This document shows positions 40,408 through 55,880 of a DNA stretch of 64,000 nt, one piece after another. Positions within the stretch are counted from its first letter, which is position 1. Each line of letters starts with the position of its first letter. Source of the stretch: Rubripirellula sp. (lineage in GTDB: Bacteria > Planctomycetota > Planctomycetia > Pirellulales > Pirellulaceae); the NCBI GenBank assembly GCA_965216875.1, contig OZ244207.1, positions 3,232,001 through 3,296,000 on the forward strand, in the 5' to 3' direction. The notes under the pieces are model-generated. The model was not told where the DNA came from, made no database searches, and saw nothing but the letters and a program-made list of their open reading frames with translations. The position numbers and the translations under genes were made by a program.

Positions 40408-40535
40408 TCGTTGGGTAGTCGCGCCAAAACAACAGCTTGGCTTGGGTGGGTCAAAACCATGGATAACAAAGAAGCATCGTTTTCCCGTCCGTTCTCGGCA
40501 GACAGTCCGCAATCACGCGGACCATGGAAAAAGAG

Positions 40536-40718
40536 CATTGGTAGGTCTTCTGACTCCTGCGTTTCGAGCCCGCCTTCTCATTCGCTTCGGTCGAAGCGAA
40601 CAATGGCAAATAGATGGACTCGAAAGGTTGCGCAGTTACAGCGGCCGGACCGTCCCGGAATTTCACCGGATTCCCTGTTCGCCCACCCGATCGAATTCGG
40701 GAGGGCCACCAACGCTTG
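40536..40718 (-). promoter_or_regulatory. Cobalamin riboswitch
   Basis: Minus strand AACAGGGAATCCGGTGAAATTCCGGGACGGTCCGGCCGCTGTAA...GCCATTG...GAGAAGGC...GAGTCAGAAGACCTACC (B12 box). Confidence 0.92.
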
Positions 40719-40810
40719 CTCGCGAGAAAGGCTAACAGGAATCCGCCGAGGTGGCTACTACCAATTTGCCGCCAACGGTTCGACGGCACACCTAACCGGG
40801 AAAATCGAGA

Positions 40811-49351: not shown

Positions 49352-49474
49352 CTGGCGGCCGGCAGGTGTGCGTTTTTGATTCGAGATTCATTTCCGAACT
49401 CTCGCGTACGCCGCGATGGACTGCATATCCATTATTGTGAAAGGGTACGATCGCTTCGCTGAAAAGGGCCGTCG

Positions 49475-49972
49475 GTGACTGAAGCAGAACTGACAGAATT
49501 ACCGAGATGGGCAAAGGTAGCATTGGCCGCACGATGCGCGCGGCGATCCCTGCCCATCTTTCGAAGATGGCAATGCACGCTTGAGCAAGCGGACACCCTT
49601 GACCAAGCGATCCGTGCCGCCGAGTGTGCTGCGGCGGTCGCCACAGCAGATCGTCGCGCAATCTCCGCCAAACGGGACGCCGCGAGGGAAGTCCTCAACG
49701 AGGTCACCTACGCAGCCAACGACCTCACCCAGTCATCACTCCATGCGCTCGCCGCCTCGATGGCAGCCGCTCGTGCGGCAGAAACGGCAATCGCCGCAAA
49801 CTACAACAACGCACACTCACTTTGCGTTTTGACCCAAGCCGCCGTCAATGCGGCAGCGAACGCCGGCGTATCGGTCCGTGGCGATCTCGAGAAACTCACT
49901 GCCATGGCATCGTTGAACCACTGGAATGATGCAACCGCCGTCCCTGCTGAGGTTTTCGAATCGGACGATTGA
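49475..49972 (+). CDS. Ala-rich helical hypothetical protein
   Basis: 165-aa ORF, LPRWAKVALAARCARR N-terminus. Confidence 0.6.
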   Translation: MTEAELTELPRWAKVALAARCARRSLPIFRRWQCTLEQADTLDQAIRAAECAAAVATADRRAISAKRDAAREVLNEVTYAANDLTQSSLHALAASMAAARAAETAIAANYNNAHSLCVLTQAAVNAAANAGVSVRGDLEKLTAMASLNHWNDATAVPAEVFESDD

Positions 49973-49998
49973 GCCAGAAATCAGATTGCTAAACGGCT

Positions 49999-50027
49999 GG
50001 GAGGGCGACGCTCCTGCGGAGCTTCCT
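49999..50027 (+). repeat. Left 29-bp inverted repeat of the suppressor-tRNA cassette (REP-like)
   Basis: GGGAGGGCGACGCTCCTGCGGAGCTTCCT; its reverse complement matches 51084-51112 and 51219-51247 at 28/29 nt. Confidence 0.85.
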
Positions 50028-50034
50028 CGCTTAG

Positions 50035-50109
50035 TACGTGCGGCGGGGTTCGAACCCGCAACTCACAGGCATTTAGAGTGCCCGGCTCTACCAATTGAGC
50101 TACGCACGT
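50035..50109 (-). tRNA. tRNA with anticodon CUA (amber suppressor type; amino acid identity unknown)
   Basis: ACGTGCG TA GCTC AATTGGTA GAGC C GGGCA CT-CTA-AA TGCCT GTGAGTT GCGGG TTCGAAC CCCGC CGCACGT A: 7-bp acceptor, 4-bp D, 5-bp anticodon (one G-U) and 5-bp T stems; CCA not encoded. Confidence 0.9.
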
Positions 50110-50115
50110 GAGTAA

Positions 50116-50142
50116 GCCGTCGCCGTAGGAGACGGCGACGGC
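50116..50142 (-). other. Strong hairpin just upstream of the tRNA
   Basis: GCCGTCGCCGT-CTCCT-ACGGCGACGGC, 11-bp perfect stem, 6 nt before the tRNA 5' end. Confidence 0.7.
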
Positions 50143-50155
50143 AGTTTAACTTAGC

Positions 50156-50563
50156 TTAGCTTTGAAAATACTCCGACACTTTTTCGTGCAACGCTTCGAT
50201 GCTCGCACCACACTCTTGGTCAAACGGCAAGACCGGTTCACCATTTGGAGTTCGTGCACGCAGAAAGAGTTCCACAATCTCGTGATCGATCACTCGTTTT
50301 GGATAAACGCGGTAGTGCGTGACATCGCCCCGCTGAAGTGGCCGATACCAAACGGTGTCGATGACAAAATGAGGGCAGAACTTCGGTTCAGGGCCGTTGC
50401 GGTTCTGCTCTTCCTTTCGCCACCATCGGTGCCACGCGTGAAAGTCGTACATGGTTTGCCAATACCATCGATGAAGCTCCTTTAGTTTGCAGTAAAGTGC
50501 ATAGTTGCATGGGTGATAGCCCCAACGGCTTTGAAACGATTCGGAGTGCTGTTGAGTTTGCAT
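50156..50563 (-). CDS. Hypothetical Trp/Arg/His-rich protein of the suppressor cassette
   Basis: SRWGYHPCNY..YCKLKELH...WHRWWRK..NR; ATG 50563, or TTG 50635 overlapping the upstream TGA; ends TAA. Confidence 0.75.
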   Translation of the reverse strand: MQTQQHSESFQSRWGYHPCNYALYCKLKELHRWYWQTMYDFHAWHRWWRKEEQNRNGPEPKFCPHFVIDTVWYRPLQRGDVTHYRVYPKRVIDHEIVELFLRARTPNGEPVLPFDQECGASIEALHEKVSEYFQS

Positions 50564-50631
50564 TGATTGTCTCTTGCTTTTGAATGAGTTGAGTTTGGTT
50601 TCGATGTCGCCCCATGGGCGCAGCGGGATCG

Positions 50632-50985
50632 TCAATGATCGGGCTGGGGCAACAGGCGGTAGCGCCTGAAGAGTCGTCGAATCGCACCGCGAACCGGTTC
50701 GGTCGCGATTGCGGTTAGCGGAACGTCGAGATCGGCGTCGAAGAAGGGCACGCAGCCAACGTCATGGAGCTGCAAATAGCGCAGCACGCAGCGAAGTTCG
50801 GTTGCATCATCAACACCCAATAAGACGAGCCGCGGATGCTCCGACGGAGGCGGCAAAGAAGTGCGTGCCATTTCAATGCACGCATGACAGGCCTGAACAG
50901 CCTGTTGGGGCGCGGAGAGATCGCGCCGGACAAAAGCATAGACATAGGTCGGTTGTGAGGGCGGTACCTAGGTGAATCCAGTCAT
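50632..50985 (-). CDS. PTH2-like peptidyl-tRNA hydrolase family protein with in-frame UAG at codon 6 (117 aa on read-through)
   Basis: GGAG-6nt-ATG ACT GGA TTC ACC TAG GTA CCG... gives MTGFT*VPPSQPTYVYAFVRRDLSAPQQAVQACHACIEMARTSL...HPRLVLLGV...FFDADLDVPLTAIATEP...RRYRLL. The ORF track shows only the last 79 aa. Confidence 0.78.
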
Positions 50986-51029
50986 CAAATGCTCCATATA
51001 GGGGATTGGAAACGTTCGCATCAATCGAG

Positions 51030-51078: not shown

Positions 51079-51284
51079 CTCCAAGGAAGCTCCGCGGGAG
51101 CGTCGCCCTCCCTGCGGTTCATTCGTCCAATTCGTTTGATTCGTGGTTCACTCGAAATCAATCACACGTCCTTCCTATCTTTCGTGACTTCTCGTGCTTT
51201 TTGTGGCAAGTCTCTCCAAGGAAGCTCCGCGGGAGCGTCGCCCTCCCCGCGGTTCATTCGTGCAATTCGTTTGATTCGTGGTTC
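51079..51284 (+). repeat. Two 71-bp direct repeats (51079-51149, 51214-51284)
   Basis: CTCCAAGGAAGCTCCGCGGGAGCGTCGCCCTCCC(T/C)GCGGTTCATTCGT(C/G)CAATTCGTTTGATTCGTGGTTC, two mismatches, 135-bp period. Confidence 0.9.
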
Positions 51285-52319
51285 TCAATCCCAACTGAGA
51301 CTGCCAGCCGCCTGATACTCCGTCACGCGAGTCTCAAAGAAGTTCTTCTCTTTGGCGAGGTCCATCGTTTCACTCATCCATGGGAACGGGTTGGTCGAAC
51401 CGTATTGCATCGGCAAACCGATCCGTTCCAAGCGGCGATCGGCAATGTGTTGGACGTAGTCACGAAACAACTCCTTGTTCAGTCCCATGATTCCATCCGG
51501 CAAACAATCGGCCGCGTAGTCGAGCTCCAGTTCAACTGCCTGCTTCACTCGATCGATCATCGACTGCTGGAATGCCTCGGTCCATAAGTGCGGGTTCTCA
51601 GCCTTGATCCCGTTGATCAGATCGATACCAAAGTTCAAGTGGATCGTTTCATCGCGGAGGATGTACTGGAACTGCTCGCCAATGCCTGTCATCAGATTTC
51701 GGCGGTGAAAGGAGAGCATCATCACAAAGCCGGTGTAGAAGAAGACACCTTCCATGATCAAGTAGTAACCAATCAGGTTCTTCAAGAACGCTTGTGCGCC
51801 CTCATCGGTCGCCGTCGAGAAATCATGAGACATCACTTCGGCGGTCAGTTCCGTTTCGAACGCGTCTTTGCGCGCGATCGAGGGAACTTCGTGATACATG
51901 TTGAAAACTTCGCCTTCATCGAGCCCCAAACTATCGACCACGTAAAGGAACGTGTGAGAGTGGACCGCTTCCTCGAAAGCTTGCCGCAGCAAGTATTGCC
52001 GACATTCGGCGTTGGTCACGTGCCGAAAAATGGCCAAGACAAGGTTGTTGCCCACCAAACTCTCGGCAGTCGAAAAGAACCCAAGGTTCCTCATGATCAC
52101 GCGACGCTCGGCATCGGTCAGGCGGTCGCTCCGCCAGATCTCGATGTCTTTGGTCATCGGCACTTCGGTTGGCATCCAGTGGTTGGCGCACCCATTCTGG
52201 TAATGCTCCCACGCCCAGTGGTATTTCAAGGGCATCAGCTGGTTGACATCGACTTGGTTGCAATTGATTAAGCGTTTGTCAGAAGCGTCGAATCGTTTTG
52301 GGACAACGGTGGTCGTCAT
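51285..52319 (-). CDS. nrdB: Ribonucleotide reductase beta subunit with class Ic (Mn/Fe)-type residues
   Basis: [57 protein letters not shown]. Confidence 0.93.
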
Positions 52320-52606: not shown

Positions 52607-55435
52607 TCACTGGCAAGCTTCACAATCGGGATCATCAACGCTGCAAGCCTGCGCGACACGATCAACTCGGATCTCGCTCGACTGGCTTTGCGACTTCATC
52701 CACCGCGGCTGGATGCCGTGTCGATTCACATCAACCGTTGACTTTTCCACCTGAGTCGCGGCCAACGAACGCATGTAGTACGTGGTTTTCAAACCGCACT
52801 TCCACGCGTGTTGGTACATCGCGTCGATCGTCTTTCCACTTGGCTGGGCAATGTAAAGGTTGAGCGATTGCCCCTGATCGATCCACTTCTGGCGTTTCGC
52901 AGCCGCCGAAATCAGCCATTTGGCATCGATCTCGAATGCGGTCGCGAAAAGCTCTTTCACATGACGTGGAAGCCGATCAATCTCGCCCAACGTTCCGTCG
53001 TAGTACTTCAACGCATCGATCATCTCTTCATCCCACAACCCGTGGGATTTCAATGAATCGACAAGCCGGTGATTCGTCTGCGTGAACTCACCGGAAAGGT
53101 TGCTCTTTGAATAGAGCTGTTTGTAGGTTGGCTCGATCGATTGCGAACAGCCAACGATGGTCGAAATCGTGGCCGTAGGAGCAATGGCTAAACAGTTGCT
53201 GTTTCGCATGCCTGAATCAGCAATCGCATCACGAACGACTTGCCAATCCATCGACGCGTTGCGATCGATATCGACAGACTGGCCGCGAGACGCTTCCAGC
53301 AAGTCAAGCGTGTCGAGGGGAAGCAGGCCACGCTCCCATTTGGAGCCAGCGTAGGTTTCGTACTTGCCCCGTTCAGCGGCCAGTTCAGTCGATGCGAGGA
53401 TCGCGTAGTAGCTGATTGCTTCCATGCTGCGATCAGCAAACTCAACCGCCGCGTCGCTGGCAAACGGCATCGCAAGCTCATGCAACGCATCTTGGAACCC
53501 CATCATGCCCAACCCAACCGGGCGGTGCCTCGCATTGGCGTTCTCGGCCTCTTGAGTCGGATAGAAGTTGATATCGATCACGTTGTCCAACATCCGCATC
53601 GCTGTCGAAACGGTCTCTCGCAACTTCCGGTGGTCAAGTTCCCCGTCAACGAGATGCTCGGCAAGATTGACGCTTCCCAGGTTGCACACAGCCGTCTCGT
53701 CTTCACTCGTGTTGAGCAAGATTTCAGTGCAAAGGTTGCTGCTATGGACAACTCCCACGTGGTCTTGGGGCGAACGGAGATTGGAGGGGTCCTTGAACGT
53801 CACCCAAGGATGCCCCGTCTCGAACAAACGCGTCAGCAGCTTTCTCCAGAGTTCGACGGCCGGCATCGTGCGATGCTGCTTGATGTTCCCGTTGGCGGCT
53901 TCCGATTCATAGCGCTCATAACGAGCGACGAATTCGGCACCAAACGAATCATGTAGATCAGACACTTCATCGGGGCTAAAGAGCGTCCAATCTTCGCCAC
54001 GTTGCACTCGCTGCATGAACAGGTCCGGAATCCAAGCGGCGGTATGCATGTCGTGGGTTCGCCGCCGGTCGTCACCGGTGTTCTTGCGCAAGTCGATGAA
54101 CTCCACAAAGTCCAGATGCCAAGGTTCCATGTAAGCACAGACTGCTCCCTTTCGCTTGCCTCCTTGGTTCACGGCGACGGCCGCGTCGTTGACAATTTTC
54201 AGAAAAGGAATCACACCTTGGCTTTCCCCGTTCGTGCCGCGAATGTGAGCTCCGGTGGCGCGGACGTTGGTCCAGTCATTGCCAAGACCGCCTGCCCACT
54301 TCGAAAGCATCGCGTTGTCTCCGATGCTCTTAAAAATGTGCTGCAAGTCGTCTTGGATCGTCGTCAGGTAGCAGCTACTCAATTGCGGGTGTGGCGTTCC
54401 TGAGTTGAACAATGTTGGTGTTGCGCTGGTGAACCGTAGCGATGAAAGCAGCTCATAGAACTCGATCGCTCGCTCGGTGCGGTTTTCCTTTTCGGCGGTC
54501 GCCAACCCCATCGCGACGCGCATCCAAAAGTACTGTGGCGTCTCAATCCTGCGGCCGTCGATATGCAACAAATAGCGATCATAGATCGTTTGTACCCCGA
54601 GGTATCGAAACGACTCGTCAAGCTGCGGCTTGAGTGCTTCGGAGAGTTTCGTGAGGTCGAACGCACGCAGCTCTTCTGACAAACGCTCGTGCCGGATCCC
54701 TTCGATCACGTAGTGCTCGAACTGGTCGCGGTAGGTGCCGATAAACCGATCATCAAACTGAGTCTTCCCGAGTGATTGACGATAGATGATCGACCGCTGA
54801 AGTTGCGCTGCAAGTTGGTCATAGGCTGGATCGCGTTCGATCCGACTGCGAGCGGACAAGACAAGCGCGCGTGTCACCTCTTCGGGCGTCATCCCATCAA
54901 ATGCCCCGCGAACAACCTCTTGCACAATCGCGTCGCAATCGACTTCCGGCAAATCAGCGGCGGGGCATTTTGCGAGGAATCGACTCAAGCGTCGCGCGTC
55001 GAATGGGACTCGAACTCCAGGTTCGAGCTCGACGTGGATGGAATGTGCCGATGACGAATCGTCGAGTGAATCGAGCCCCGATTCAGTGGCCCGAATCGTG
55101 CGAATCCGGGCGTGTTCGGTGCGGTAAAGAATGTAGCGACGAGCAACATGAAAGTGCTCGAGTTTCATCAGTCCGATTTCAACGACATCCTGAATTTGCT
55201 CGACCGACAACGCATCGTTCAACCCTGGTTGTGTTGCAATCCGTCGAACCTGACCCGCGATCTGTTCAACGTCTTTTTGAATGTCGGCGGCAAGCGGTTG
55301 CCCGTCAGCCAAGTTCAATTCAGCACGAAACGCCTTGGCAATCGCCTGCTCAACCCGCGCACCGTCAAATTCCACTTCACGTCCATCCCGCTTGCGAACC
55401 ACCGGCGCGCAGGAAGCATCCATTGACCGTTCCAT
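52607..55435 (-). CDS. nrdA: Class I ribonucleotide reductase alpha subunit with ATP-cone region
   Basis: VRKRDG ATP cone, [53 protein letters not shown]-terminal [16 protein letters not shown] before ATG 55435. Confidence 0.96.
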
Positions 55436-55647
55436 CGAGAAACTCCGTTCATTTGCCGACGCGTGTTCGCGCCAGTGCCATTCCAAGTGCAAGTGCCGAT
55501 CACGGTCGAGCTCACGCATCCCATCGCTGGCGAATGGGTTTTGATGTTGCGAACACGCACGCGAAAAACAGGAAAGACGACATCAACATCAAGTCAAACG
55601 TCATCGCAACGATTGCCCCAATCCAAGAGGGCGCCAAAATCGTCTAT

Positions 55648-55848
55648 TTCGCGGTAGGTCTTCTGACTCACTGCCGGACAACGTTCACTGCCTTCTCATT
55701 CATGCGAGATGAACAATGGCACTTCAAAAGAAGAAACGTTGATTTGCAACCGAAGTTGCAGCAGTTCACAGCGGCTGGACCGTCCCGGATTCACACCGGA
55801 GTTCCCTGTTCATGGGTCATGCAGAAGCATGCCCATCACCACGAACGG
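55648..55848 (-). promoter_or_regulatory. Cobalamin riboswitch upstream of nrdA
   Basis: Minus strand AACAGGGAACTCCGGTGTGAATCCGGGACGGTCCAGCCGCTGTG...GCCATTG...GAGAAGGC...GAGTCAGAAGACCTACC. Confidence 0.92.
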
Positions 55849-55852
55849 TAGC

Positions 55853-55880
55853 AATCTACCAATCTCAACACCGCTGTCAA
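55853..55880 (-). promoter_or_regulatory. Candidate sigma-70 promoter for the riboswitch-nrd transcript
   Basis: TTGACA-16nt-TAGATT immediately upstream of the riboswitch. Confidence 0.55.

Follow-up and report, generated by a model that had tools for sequence, protein, structure and literature searches.

Which codon, in which gene, does an amber-reading tRNA serve in a bacterium whose commonest stop codon is UAG? The question is raised by a gene for a tRNA with the anticodon CUA (tRNA-CUA), located at positions 50035..50109 on the minus strand of a 64,000-nt stretch of the genome of Rubripirellula sp. from the Planctomycetota (GenBank assembly GCA_965216875.1, contig OZ244207.1, positions 3,232,001 to 3,296,000). 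We call this whole stretch the window and give coordinates within it. A first-pass annotation, made from the sequence alone, had recognized the tRNA; it missed the main point, which is that the tRNA belongs to an operon with a conserved in-frame UAG in its first gene. This gene encodes a protein resembling the peptidyl-tRNA hydrolase Pth2 (hereafter PTH2-like), and we refer to its UAG as the gate. We consider it likely that the tRNA-CUA acts as a functional amber suppressor and has been conserved for the decoding of this gate.

A conserved in-frame UAG at the start of a PTH2-fold gene

The PTH2-like gene with its leader occupies 50632..50985 on the minus strand. As read from the DNA, it begins with ATG (50985-50983), continues with ACT GGA TTC ACC, reaches the TAG as its sixth codon (50968..50970, minus strand; the next base is G) and then encodes a 111-aa domain of PTH2 fold that ends with TGA at 50634-50632. 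A GGAG motif resembling a Shine-Dalgarno (SD) sequence (50992..50995, minus strand) stands 6 nt before this ATG, so that the DNA reads GGAG-cauuug-ATG ACT GGA TTC ACC TAG GTA CCG; a second in-frame ATG is found at 50997-50995. The homologous gene of a Planctomycetaceae metagenome-assembled genome (MAG; locus L082) starts with aaGGAGcaacg-ATG CAC AGA ACC GGT TTC ACC TAG GTT. The first ATG, GTG or TTG past the gate comes only at codon +33, inside the PTH2 domain. Since the frame has no usable start after the TAG, the gene must start upstream of the in-frame amber codon.

The fold of the product was confirmed by modelling: the predicted structure of the window protein (AlphaFold2, AF2; predicted local distance difference test, pLDDT, 89) was compared with the PDB, and all 13 matches at E ≤0.001 belonged to the Pth2 fold group (template modelling (TM) scores 0.67-0.75, probability 1.00). 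The Pfam family PF01981 was matched by 19 of 25 PTH2-like relatives at E ≤0.01 (best 1.7e-5), the L082 copy scored 23.5 bits against a cut-off of 23, and a profile of the family searched against the PDB returned the peptidyl-tRNA hydrolases 24bt_A (E 1.4e-4) and 2zv3_A (E 5.6e-4). Like archaeal and eukaryotic Pth2 (PF01981; PDB 2zv3, 3erj, 1q7s, 1xty), the protein combines this fold with the motifs R-x-D-L, Q..HA and T-A-x-A, and it keeps a conserved Asp and Thr. The PTH2-like family amounts to about 1,048 sequence clusters. An ordinary bacterial Pth is also encoded in the host genome.

The gate is not a peculiarity of the window. We gathered 38 metagenome loci by alignment to the tryptophan (Trp)-rich protein encoded by the second gene of the operon, and a local tblastn with the window PTH2-like protein, in which the TAG was replaced by X, located the PTH2-like gene just upstream in 34 of them. 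All 35 loci of a first set, each complete at the 5' end, showed the order ATG, 2-8 codons, TAG and PTH2 domain in the same frame; this set comprises the window, L082, 31 metagenome loci and the phages BF and RsoM2USA (about 26 distinct sequences) and leaves aside four further loci cut at the 5' end. Together with the phages ME3, Arash, LR756511, XacN1, Xoo-sp13 and RAS14, the gate was present in 41/41 loci whose 5' end is intact and whose PTH2-like gene lacks its own start codon, that is, in the window, L082, 31 metagenome loci and eight phage genomes, among them cultured jumbo phages. An SD-like motif precedes the leader ATG in most of the other gated loci.

The sequence around the gate is just as regular. 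Its stop is always TAG and never TAA or TGA (41/41), and the base that follows was a purine in all loci of the first set (G in 27, A in 8) as well as in the six added later; after ordinary TAG stops of the host, a purine is found in 46% of cases. The codon after the gate is mostly not a start codon (GTA/GTC/GTT, GGC, GCG, GAC, ATT, AAC, ACC). As terminator, TAG is avoided by the module: only 1 of 54 module genes ends in it, compared with 42% of long host ORFs (open reading frames), with TGA in 25, TAA in 2 and TAG in 1 of 28 PTH2-like genes and TAA in 25, TGA in 1 and TAG in none of 26 Trp-rich genes. Among all ORFs of 14 loci, module genes included and summed per locus, TAG accounted for 21 of 129 stops.

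In a tblastn search of 50,697 phage records the PTH2-like protein matched 28, nearly all of them genomes of cultured jumbo phages (>200 kb). The leader reads ATG ACG CAC TAG AAT in Serratia phage BF and ATG TTG TAG ATT in Ralstonia phage RsoM2USA, where the gene falls in an unannotated gap in both cases; ATG ACT TAG ATT in Acinetobacter phage ME3, which has an annotated 'anticodon CTA' tRNA 450 nt upstream; ATG CTG TAG AAC in Salmonella phage Arash, where the last 51 residues alone are annotated; and ATG ACT CAC TAG GTT in the uncultured 595-kb phage LR756511, whose record carries no annotation. In XacN1, Xoo-sp13 and RAS14 an SD-ATG-AAG(-AAG)-TAG-A leader lies upstream of the annotated start, and the domain follows behind about 170 extra residues; ORF364 of XacN1, with the leader ATG-AAG-TAG, is annotated from a later ATG. 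A gene with its own ATG was seen in Klebsiella phage RaK2: there, an in-frame TAG four codons upstream ends a 36-codon ORF, and no CUA tRNA was found with the pattern used.

All eight gated phage genomes contain a CUA tRNA or a pattern match to one. ARAGORN found the tRNA in six of them (BF, ME3, RsoM2USA, Arash, LR756511 and Xoo-sp13); XacN1 has four pattern matches in addition to the report in its paper, and for RAS14 the assignment is by pattern match only. In their available text, the papers on XacN1 (PMC5852040) and RsoM2USA (PMC8504454) report CUA tRNAs and name no specific target gene, and the corresponding text on Eneladusvirus lists a 'tRNA-Pyl'. To these descriptions, as far as that text extends, we add that the CUA tRNAs of XacN1 and RsoM2USA would do the same job in the same phages, and that their candidate target is the PTH2-like ORF starting with ATG-AAG-TAG (XacN1 ORF364) or ATG-TTG-TAG (RsoM2USA).

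A side result concerns the GenBank records themselves. Because the ATG-x-TAG leader is not recognized, the PTH2-like gene goes unannotated, is cut short or is given too late a start in KY630187.1 (~286080-286417), MG752970.1 (~68848-69291), OQ632216.1 (gp84c), AP018399.1 (ORF364), MN047793.1 (Xoosp13_327) and OP752703.1.

The tRNA-CUA and the gated gene are linked both physically and phyletically. One group, made up of the window, L082 and 10 metagenome loci, has the tRNA about 45 nt behind the Trp-rich gene; in a second group (L109, L110, L114, L115 and L118) it stands just upstream of the gated gene, and in L121 it lies about 3 kb upstream of the PTH2-like gene. Among the metagenome loci, the more distant ones look like phage DNA: their contigs of 59-424 kb carry HNH endonucleases, Mom, RNA ligase, FkbM methyltransferases and many ORFans. 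Since their other ORFs still stop at TAG, these loci are not recoded overall.

The amber-anticodon tRNA and the genetic code of its host

The host genome is a single 8.26-Mb contig with 56% G+C, 99 tRNA genes and one tmRNA, and the tRNA studied here is its only CUA tRNA. ARAGORN made a single tRNA call in the window (50034-50109, minus strand, anticodon CTA), and the Rfam model RF00005 matched 50035-50109 of the minus strand over its full length (1-71) with 60 bits (gathering score 29, E 1.7e-10), which places the 75-nt sequence, without an encoded CCA, in this family. The acceptor stem ACGUGCG/CGCACGU starts with the pair A1-U72 and is followed by the discriminator A73. After UA, the D stem GCUC/GAGC encloses the loop AAUUGGUA, which contains GG; after a single C, the anticodon stem GGGCA/UGCCU carries the loop CU-CUA-AA with U33 and A37. 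A 7-nt, unpaired variable region (GUGAGUU) leads to the T arm GCGGG-UUCGAAC-CCCGC. The tertiary landmarks U8, A14 and G18G19 are in place, and all stems are fully paired, with one G-U pair in the anticodon stem. The first-pass annotation had reported these landmarks, the A1-U72 pair, A73, the 7-nt variable region and the absence of decay, and in the window copy each of these holds; it had named no strand, which is the minus strand.

Typical tRNA-Pyl has a short D loop lacking G18G19, a variable loop of 3 nt and a 6-bp anticodon stem. The window tRNA has GG in the D loop, a T loop UUCGAAC, both of canonical form, and the longer variable region, and no pyrrolysyl-tRNA synthetase (PylRS) is encoded in the genome, where the best match to TIGR02367 (PylS) reached 22 bits with a cut-off of 178; the name 'tRNA-Pyl' given by ARAGORN is owed to the anticodon alone. 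A long-arm Tyr, Ser or Leu tRNA turned suppressor was rejected as well, as the variable region is not a stem of at least 10 nt. The earlier exclusion of both tRNA classes was right. Nor is the gene a recent anticodon mutant of a host tRNA, an origin that would have refuted the first-pass annotation: the best of the 98 other tRNAs of the genome are 75% identical (Asp, Met), the closest paralogues being those for Asp, Met, Thr-CGU and Trp at 72-75%, BLAST gave 79% to tRNA-Thr(CGU) over positions 5-70, and conserved CUA homologues exist. A BLAST search of 60 related genomes returned nothing above 81% identity, and the 19 best loci examined were 16 tRNA-Thr(CGU) and 3 tRNA-Asp genes.

The homologues came from two sources. 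A scan of 185,579 species, each represented by a single genome, for CUA tRNAs that share the D arm gave 15 loci, two of them clear homologues (L082 and the Pirellulaceae MAG L073), and 11 further distinct ones were metagenome loci. When these were aligned with the window copy (14 members), the CUA anticodon did not vary, nor did most tertiary positions; pairing held in 99.3% of stem cells, and compensatory changes on both sides were seen at 13 of the 21 stem pairs. None of 500 shuffles reached any of five measures, and slid controls collapsed to 35-52% pairing. A related strain, recovered from a metagenome run with 95-99% identity over the whole module, had no difference in the 75 nt of the tRNA or at the TAG, and six differences in the 20 nt just past the 3' end of the tRNA; five others fall within the PTH2-like gene or immediately before it. 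Judged by these comparisons, the tRNA-CUA is a real tRNA under selection. The 'unusual identity set' of the first-pass annotation turned out not to be a hallmark of the family: A1-U72 is confined to the window copy (G1-C72 in 13/14), the 7-nt variable region recurs in 5 of the 13 others (4-6 nt in the remainder), and A73 is found in 13/14.

Among viruses, a scan for CUA tRNAs with the same D arm (48 loci) found none more than 79% identical to the window tRNA and none with its acceptor stem, and a phage BLAST with the window tRNA returned only mycobacteriophage tRNA-Trp at 80%. The close homologue in L073 (JASMLW010000579.1, 1493-1568) adjoins a gene for a GNAT acetyltransferase.

As to charging, many CUA tRNAs are charged by lysyl- or glutaminyl-tRNA synthetase in E. 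coli. The discriminator A73 presumably fits Lys better; the first-pass annotation had likewise guessed at lysyl-tRNA synthetase, from U35 together with A73. Glutamine at the gate, as displayed by several database proteins, was rejected as evidence, at least four of these proteins being the same TAG-containing loci evidently called under code 15. Because the gate sits in a short leader, the identity of the inserted residue may not matter.

The host reads a standard code. Among 4,158 non-overlapping ORFs of at least 250 codons, 1,734 (42%) end in TAG, 1,545 in TGA and 879 in TAA, and release factor 1 (RF1, prfA) is encoded with a score of 457.6 bits, above the cut-off. A code with reassigned UAG (such as code 15) was rejected because UAG is the commonest stop and RF1 is present. 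Back-up stops within five codons follow 14.8% of TAG, 19.7% of TGA and 15.2% of TAA stops. TAG as the most used stop is in itself unusual for a bacterium with 56% G+C and striking beside an amber suppressor.

Outside the window, about 50 of the 99 tRNA genes stand in two dense arrays (C1:591000-608012 and C1:628016-632638) with tRNA-Ile(UAU), duplicated sets and 73-77-nt 'tRNA-Leu' genes that lack a long variable arm; their appearance suggests a mobile or phage origin. A further ARAGORN call (C1:3442059-3442132) has the four-base anticodon 'tttc' and a type that ARAGORN left undetermined.

Operon layout and neighbouring features

In the window the module runs from the PTH2-like gene through the Trp-rich gene and a GC-rich hairpin to the tRNA-CUA; both ORFs are directly upstream of the tRNA on the same strand, and their homologues have the same order in L082. 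The Trp-rich gene (50156..50563, minus strand) encodes a protein of about 133-135 aa that starts with MQTQQ... and ends at TAA. It is 50% identical to its counterpart at L082:977-1444, with homologous start sites. The family is small, with 12 clusters among 5.8 billion, and had no match in Pfam, NCBIfam or PADLOC. Its AF2 model is of high predicted quality (pLDDT 94.2), but no convincing counterpart turned up among known folds: the best E was 0.79 with Foldseek against the PDB, the best Z was 5.1 in a wide VIA-align search (a designed helical bundle), and the ESM Atlas gave nothing usable. Predicting a complex of the two proteins gave a score of 0.01, which is no evidence either way. No homologue was found in cultured phages, where an hhalign comparison with the genes downstream of the phage PTH2-like genes was also negative; because of this absence we regard the Trp-rich partner as an accessory of one branch.

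The hairpin, an 11-bp GC-rich stem-loop between the Trp-rich gene and the tRNA (50116..50142, minus strand), was picked up by a terminator scan of the plus strand and is not followed by a U-tract on the minus strand. Of 12 loci with this gene order, 11 have a predicted strong hairpin that ends 2-7 nt ahead of position 1 of the tRNA; stem sequences differ among loci, no U-tract comes after them, and z is ≤-3 in 8/12. The hairpin of L101 is weak. A promoter scan of 49400-51000 found no sigma-70-like site, a kind of scan that is uninformative for a planctomycete.

The module is present in a single copy, flanked by a Ser/Thr kinase gene and nrdAB and by no prophage genes. The borders of the insertion could not be mapped, both same-genus genomes being too divergent at the DNA level. 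A palindromic repeat GGAGGGCGACGCTCC...GGAGCTTCC flanks the module (50003-50031, plus strand; ~51084-51119 and 51219-51254, minus strand) and was considered as its border; with about 30 copies genome-wide, it is a REP-like element and does not delimit the module. The neighbouring nrdA (52607-55519, minus strand) and nrdB (51285-52319, minus strand) form a class I ribonucleotide reductase operon, upstream of which lies one of two cobalamin riboswitches (55636-55858, minus strand, 75.1 bits); the other is at 40523-40728 (minus strand, 85.9 bits).

Some metagenome loci carry further unusual tRNA genes. A tRNA-Gly with the unusual anticodon ACC (A34) follows the Trp-rich ORF in phage-like relatives of the module (L110:2117-2191, L112:405-476 and L114:4405-4479). 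Odd tRNA-like clusters occur downstream of the module on a 424-kb contig and a relative (L119:3190-3335, L121:4586-4810), with Val(GAC/AAC)-like genes and tRNA-like genes that have a shortened anticodon arm or a non-standard loop.

A probable dedicated suppressor and its gated gene: proposed mechanism and alternatives

Our best reading of the locus is a dedicated pair of suppressor and gated gene of phage ancestry. The tRNA-CUA would decode the gate UAG in competition with RF1, and, because the PTH2-like frame offers no start past the UAG, the enzyme would be made only by read-through, that is, when the charged tRNA-CUA beats RF1 at the gate. We suppose that the tRNA is co-transcribed with the module and probably cut out by RNase P, and that the hairpin may cap and protect the new 3' end of the mRNA after this release. 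The arrangement would amount to a built-in sensor, with the output of the hydrolase-like enzyme following suppressor activity. Its most likely substrate would be peptidyl- or aminoacyl-tRNA that arises through suppression, and the hydrolysis of this tRNA could either limit the suppressor by negative feedback or clean up after read-through. A host with UAG as its commonest stop can tolerate only a suppressor that is weak, rarely expressed or self-limited. The window copy is most likely phage-derived, as the module, common in jumbo phages, is seldom found in bacteria.

Parts of this scheme have precedents. The RF2 gene prfB contains an early in-frame UGA and is autoregulated by a +1 frameshift, by which it senses its own product; in Streptomyces, the bldA tRNA-Leu(UAA) gates TTA-containing genes. 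Like prfB, the module would use an early in-frame stop in a gene for a translation factor to tie its output to the efficiency of stop reading, but here the stop would be read in frame by a dedicated tRNA of the same operon and not bypassed by a frameshift. Like bldA, one tRNA would gate specific genes through a codon otherwise unreadable or rare, although this codon is the most used stop of the host and not a sense codon, and tRNA and target are physically linked. Phages that recode UAG (code 15) do so with suppressor tRNAs, and the available text on them proposes tRNA gating of particular genes as a regulatory switch (10.1101/2021.08.26.457843; PMC9523058). As in the phages described there, the tRNA-CUA of a mobile element would read an in-frame UAG where the host uses UAG as a stop; in contrast to them, one gene family has a single conserved UAG, 2-8 codons behind its start, TAG still terminates the neighbouring ORFs, and the module also occurs in a bacterial chromosome. 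The module, compared in this way, resembles phage suppressor recoding cut down to one gate, and also prfB and bldA, and is a member of none of these systems. In openly accessible full texts and the supplements that were opened, no UAG-gated PTH2-like gene or planctomycete amber suppressor was described.

A stronger form of the proposal is that tRNA-CUA and enzyme make up a self-contained read-through homeostat: the enzyme would specifically hydrolyse the charged or peptidyl suppressor tRNA, so that suppression is on but does not exceed a fixed level. Such a device, common to many jumbo phages and handed on to some planctomycetes, would be the reason for amber suppressors in standard-code phages and a tunable code switch. 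We regard this extension as possible and rather doubtful.

Several observations weigh against the pairing of suppressor and gated enzyme. The linkage of tRNA and gate is not strictly one-to-one, given seven distinct metagenome loci that have the gated and the Trp-rich gene and no tRNA within about 4 kb, as well as the Pirellulaceae MAG L073/G459, which has the tRNA but in whose assembly neither a PTH2-like nor a Trp-rich gene was found, near the tRNA or elsewhere. The window protein falls below the Pfam threshold for PF01981 (no match at E ≤0.01), and its family differs from archaeal and eukaryotic Pth2 in an invariant Glu after the HA motif and in having 'PQQ' aligned to the 'GK' segment, the lysine of which we take to be catalytic in canonical Pth2. 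Because of this replacement the predicted hydrolase activity is not assured, and a role on peptidyl- or aminoacyl-tRNA is weakened. An active suppressor should also be costly to a host that has RF1, uses TAG for 42% of its stops and shows no extra back-up stops after TAG. The locus was found in none of the searched sequencing runs that are recorded as RNA, nor in one run presumed to be RNA. Finally, if the hydrolase only controls the tRNA, the logic of the module is circular.

A rival explanation is that the module is a selfish or defensive two-part system. A stable suppressor tRNA would be harmful through UAG read-through, the UAG-gated PTH2-like enzyme would be the antidote that inactivates charged or peptidyl tRNA-CUA, and read-through would break loose once the module was lost or a phage shut off host gene expression, with addiction or abortive infection as the outcome. 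The compact, self-referential design and the patchy, rare occurrence (the Trp-rich protein in 0/400 other Planctomycetota genomes, the tRNA in 0/60 relatives) fit such a system, as do its presence in phages and beside transposase or IS605-type genes (L082, L113) and the prevalence of UAG stops in the host, by which the tRNA could be toxic. Against it, neither protein has a PADLOC model (PADLOC-DB 2.0 gave no defence family at E ≤1 for the window and L089 copies of both), many phage copies stand among ordinary phage genes and tRNA clusters and not in defence islands, and both the toxicity of the tRNA and the action of the enzyme on it are putative only. We consider this explanation unlikely.

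It is also quite improbable that the module is a phage-derived relic, brought in by a phage or mobile element and as yet undecayed, but without expression or use in this bacterium. The single copy, its absence from both same-genus genomes by tRNA BLAST, the flanks that hold no prophage genes and the failure to find the locus in RNA runs would suit a relic. The gate, both ORFs, the hairpin and the tRNA are all intact, however; the tRNA is unchanged in the diverged strain despite altered flanking DNA, and a chromosomal-type module persists in the planctomycete-like loci L082, L088/L089 and L107, with 50-60% protein identity and compensatory changes in the tRNA.

That the tRNA is a general amber suppressor extending many host proteins, or a step towards UAG reassignment, with its neighbour genes incidental, seems to us very improbable. 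A canonical elongator-type CUA tRNA could read any UAG, but the share of host ORFs ending in TAG, the presence of RF1 and the frequency of back-up stops, which is not higher after TAG than after TGA or TAA, all speak against such use, and the tie to the gated gene is too regular for chance neighbours. The idea that the ATG...TAG leader is a separate mini-ORF, with the domain translated by re-initiation or the leader acting as a drop-off 'minigene' independently of a tRNA that has another role, recalls known minigenes whose peptidyl-tRNA drop-off depends on Pth and agrees with the shortness of the leaders, but it can scarcely be credited, since the leader is in frame in 41/41 loci (1 in 3 by chance) and invariably closed by TAG, in most cases no start codon comes next, and the gate co-occurs with CUA tRNAs.

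Natural amber suppressor tRNAs occur in many phage genomes that otherwise use the standard code, and their purpose had been unclear. Read as a dedicated pair of suppressor and gated gene, the module offers a concrete target: a single UAG in the very first codons of a tRNA-hydrolase-like gene, which is conserved between proteobacterial jumbo phages and planctomycete chromosomes. It also exposes a systematic annotation gap, as several phage entries in GenBank lack the gene, truncate it or start it too late. For this bacterium, the module illustrates the coexistence of a suppressor tRNA with UAG as the commonest stop of the genome, and it is a compact part for synthetic biology. If the module is indeed a sensor or homeostat of read-through, it would represent a new natural design for the control of stop-codon suppression; as a homeostat it would provide the long-sought reason why standard-code phages carry amber suppressors, together with a ready-made, tunable switch of the genetic code.

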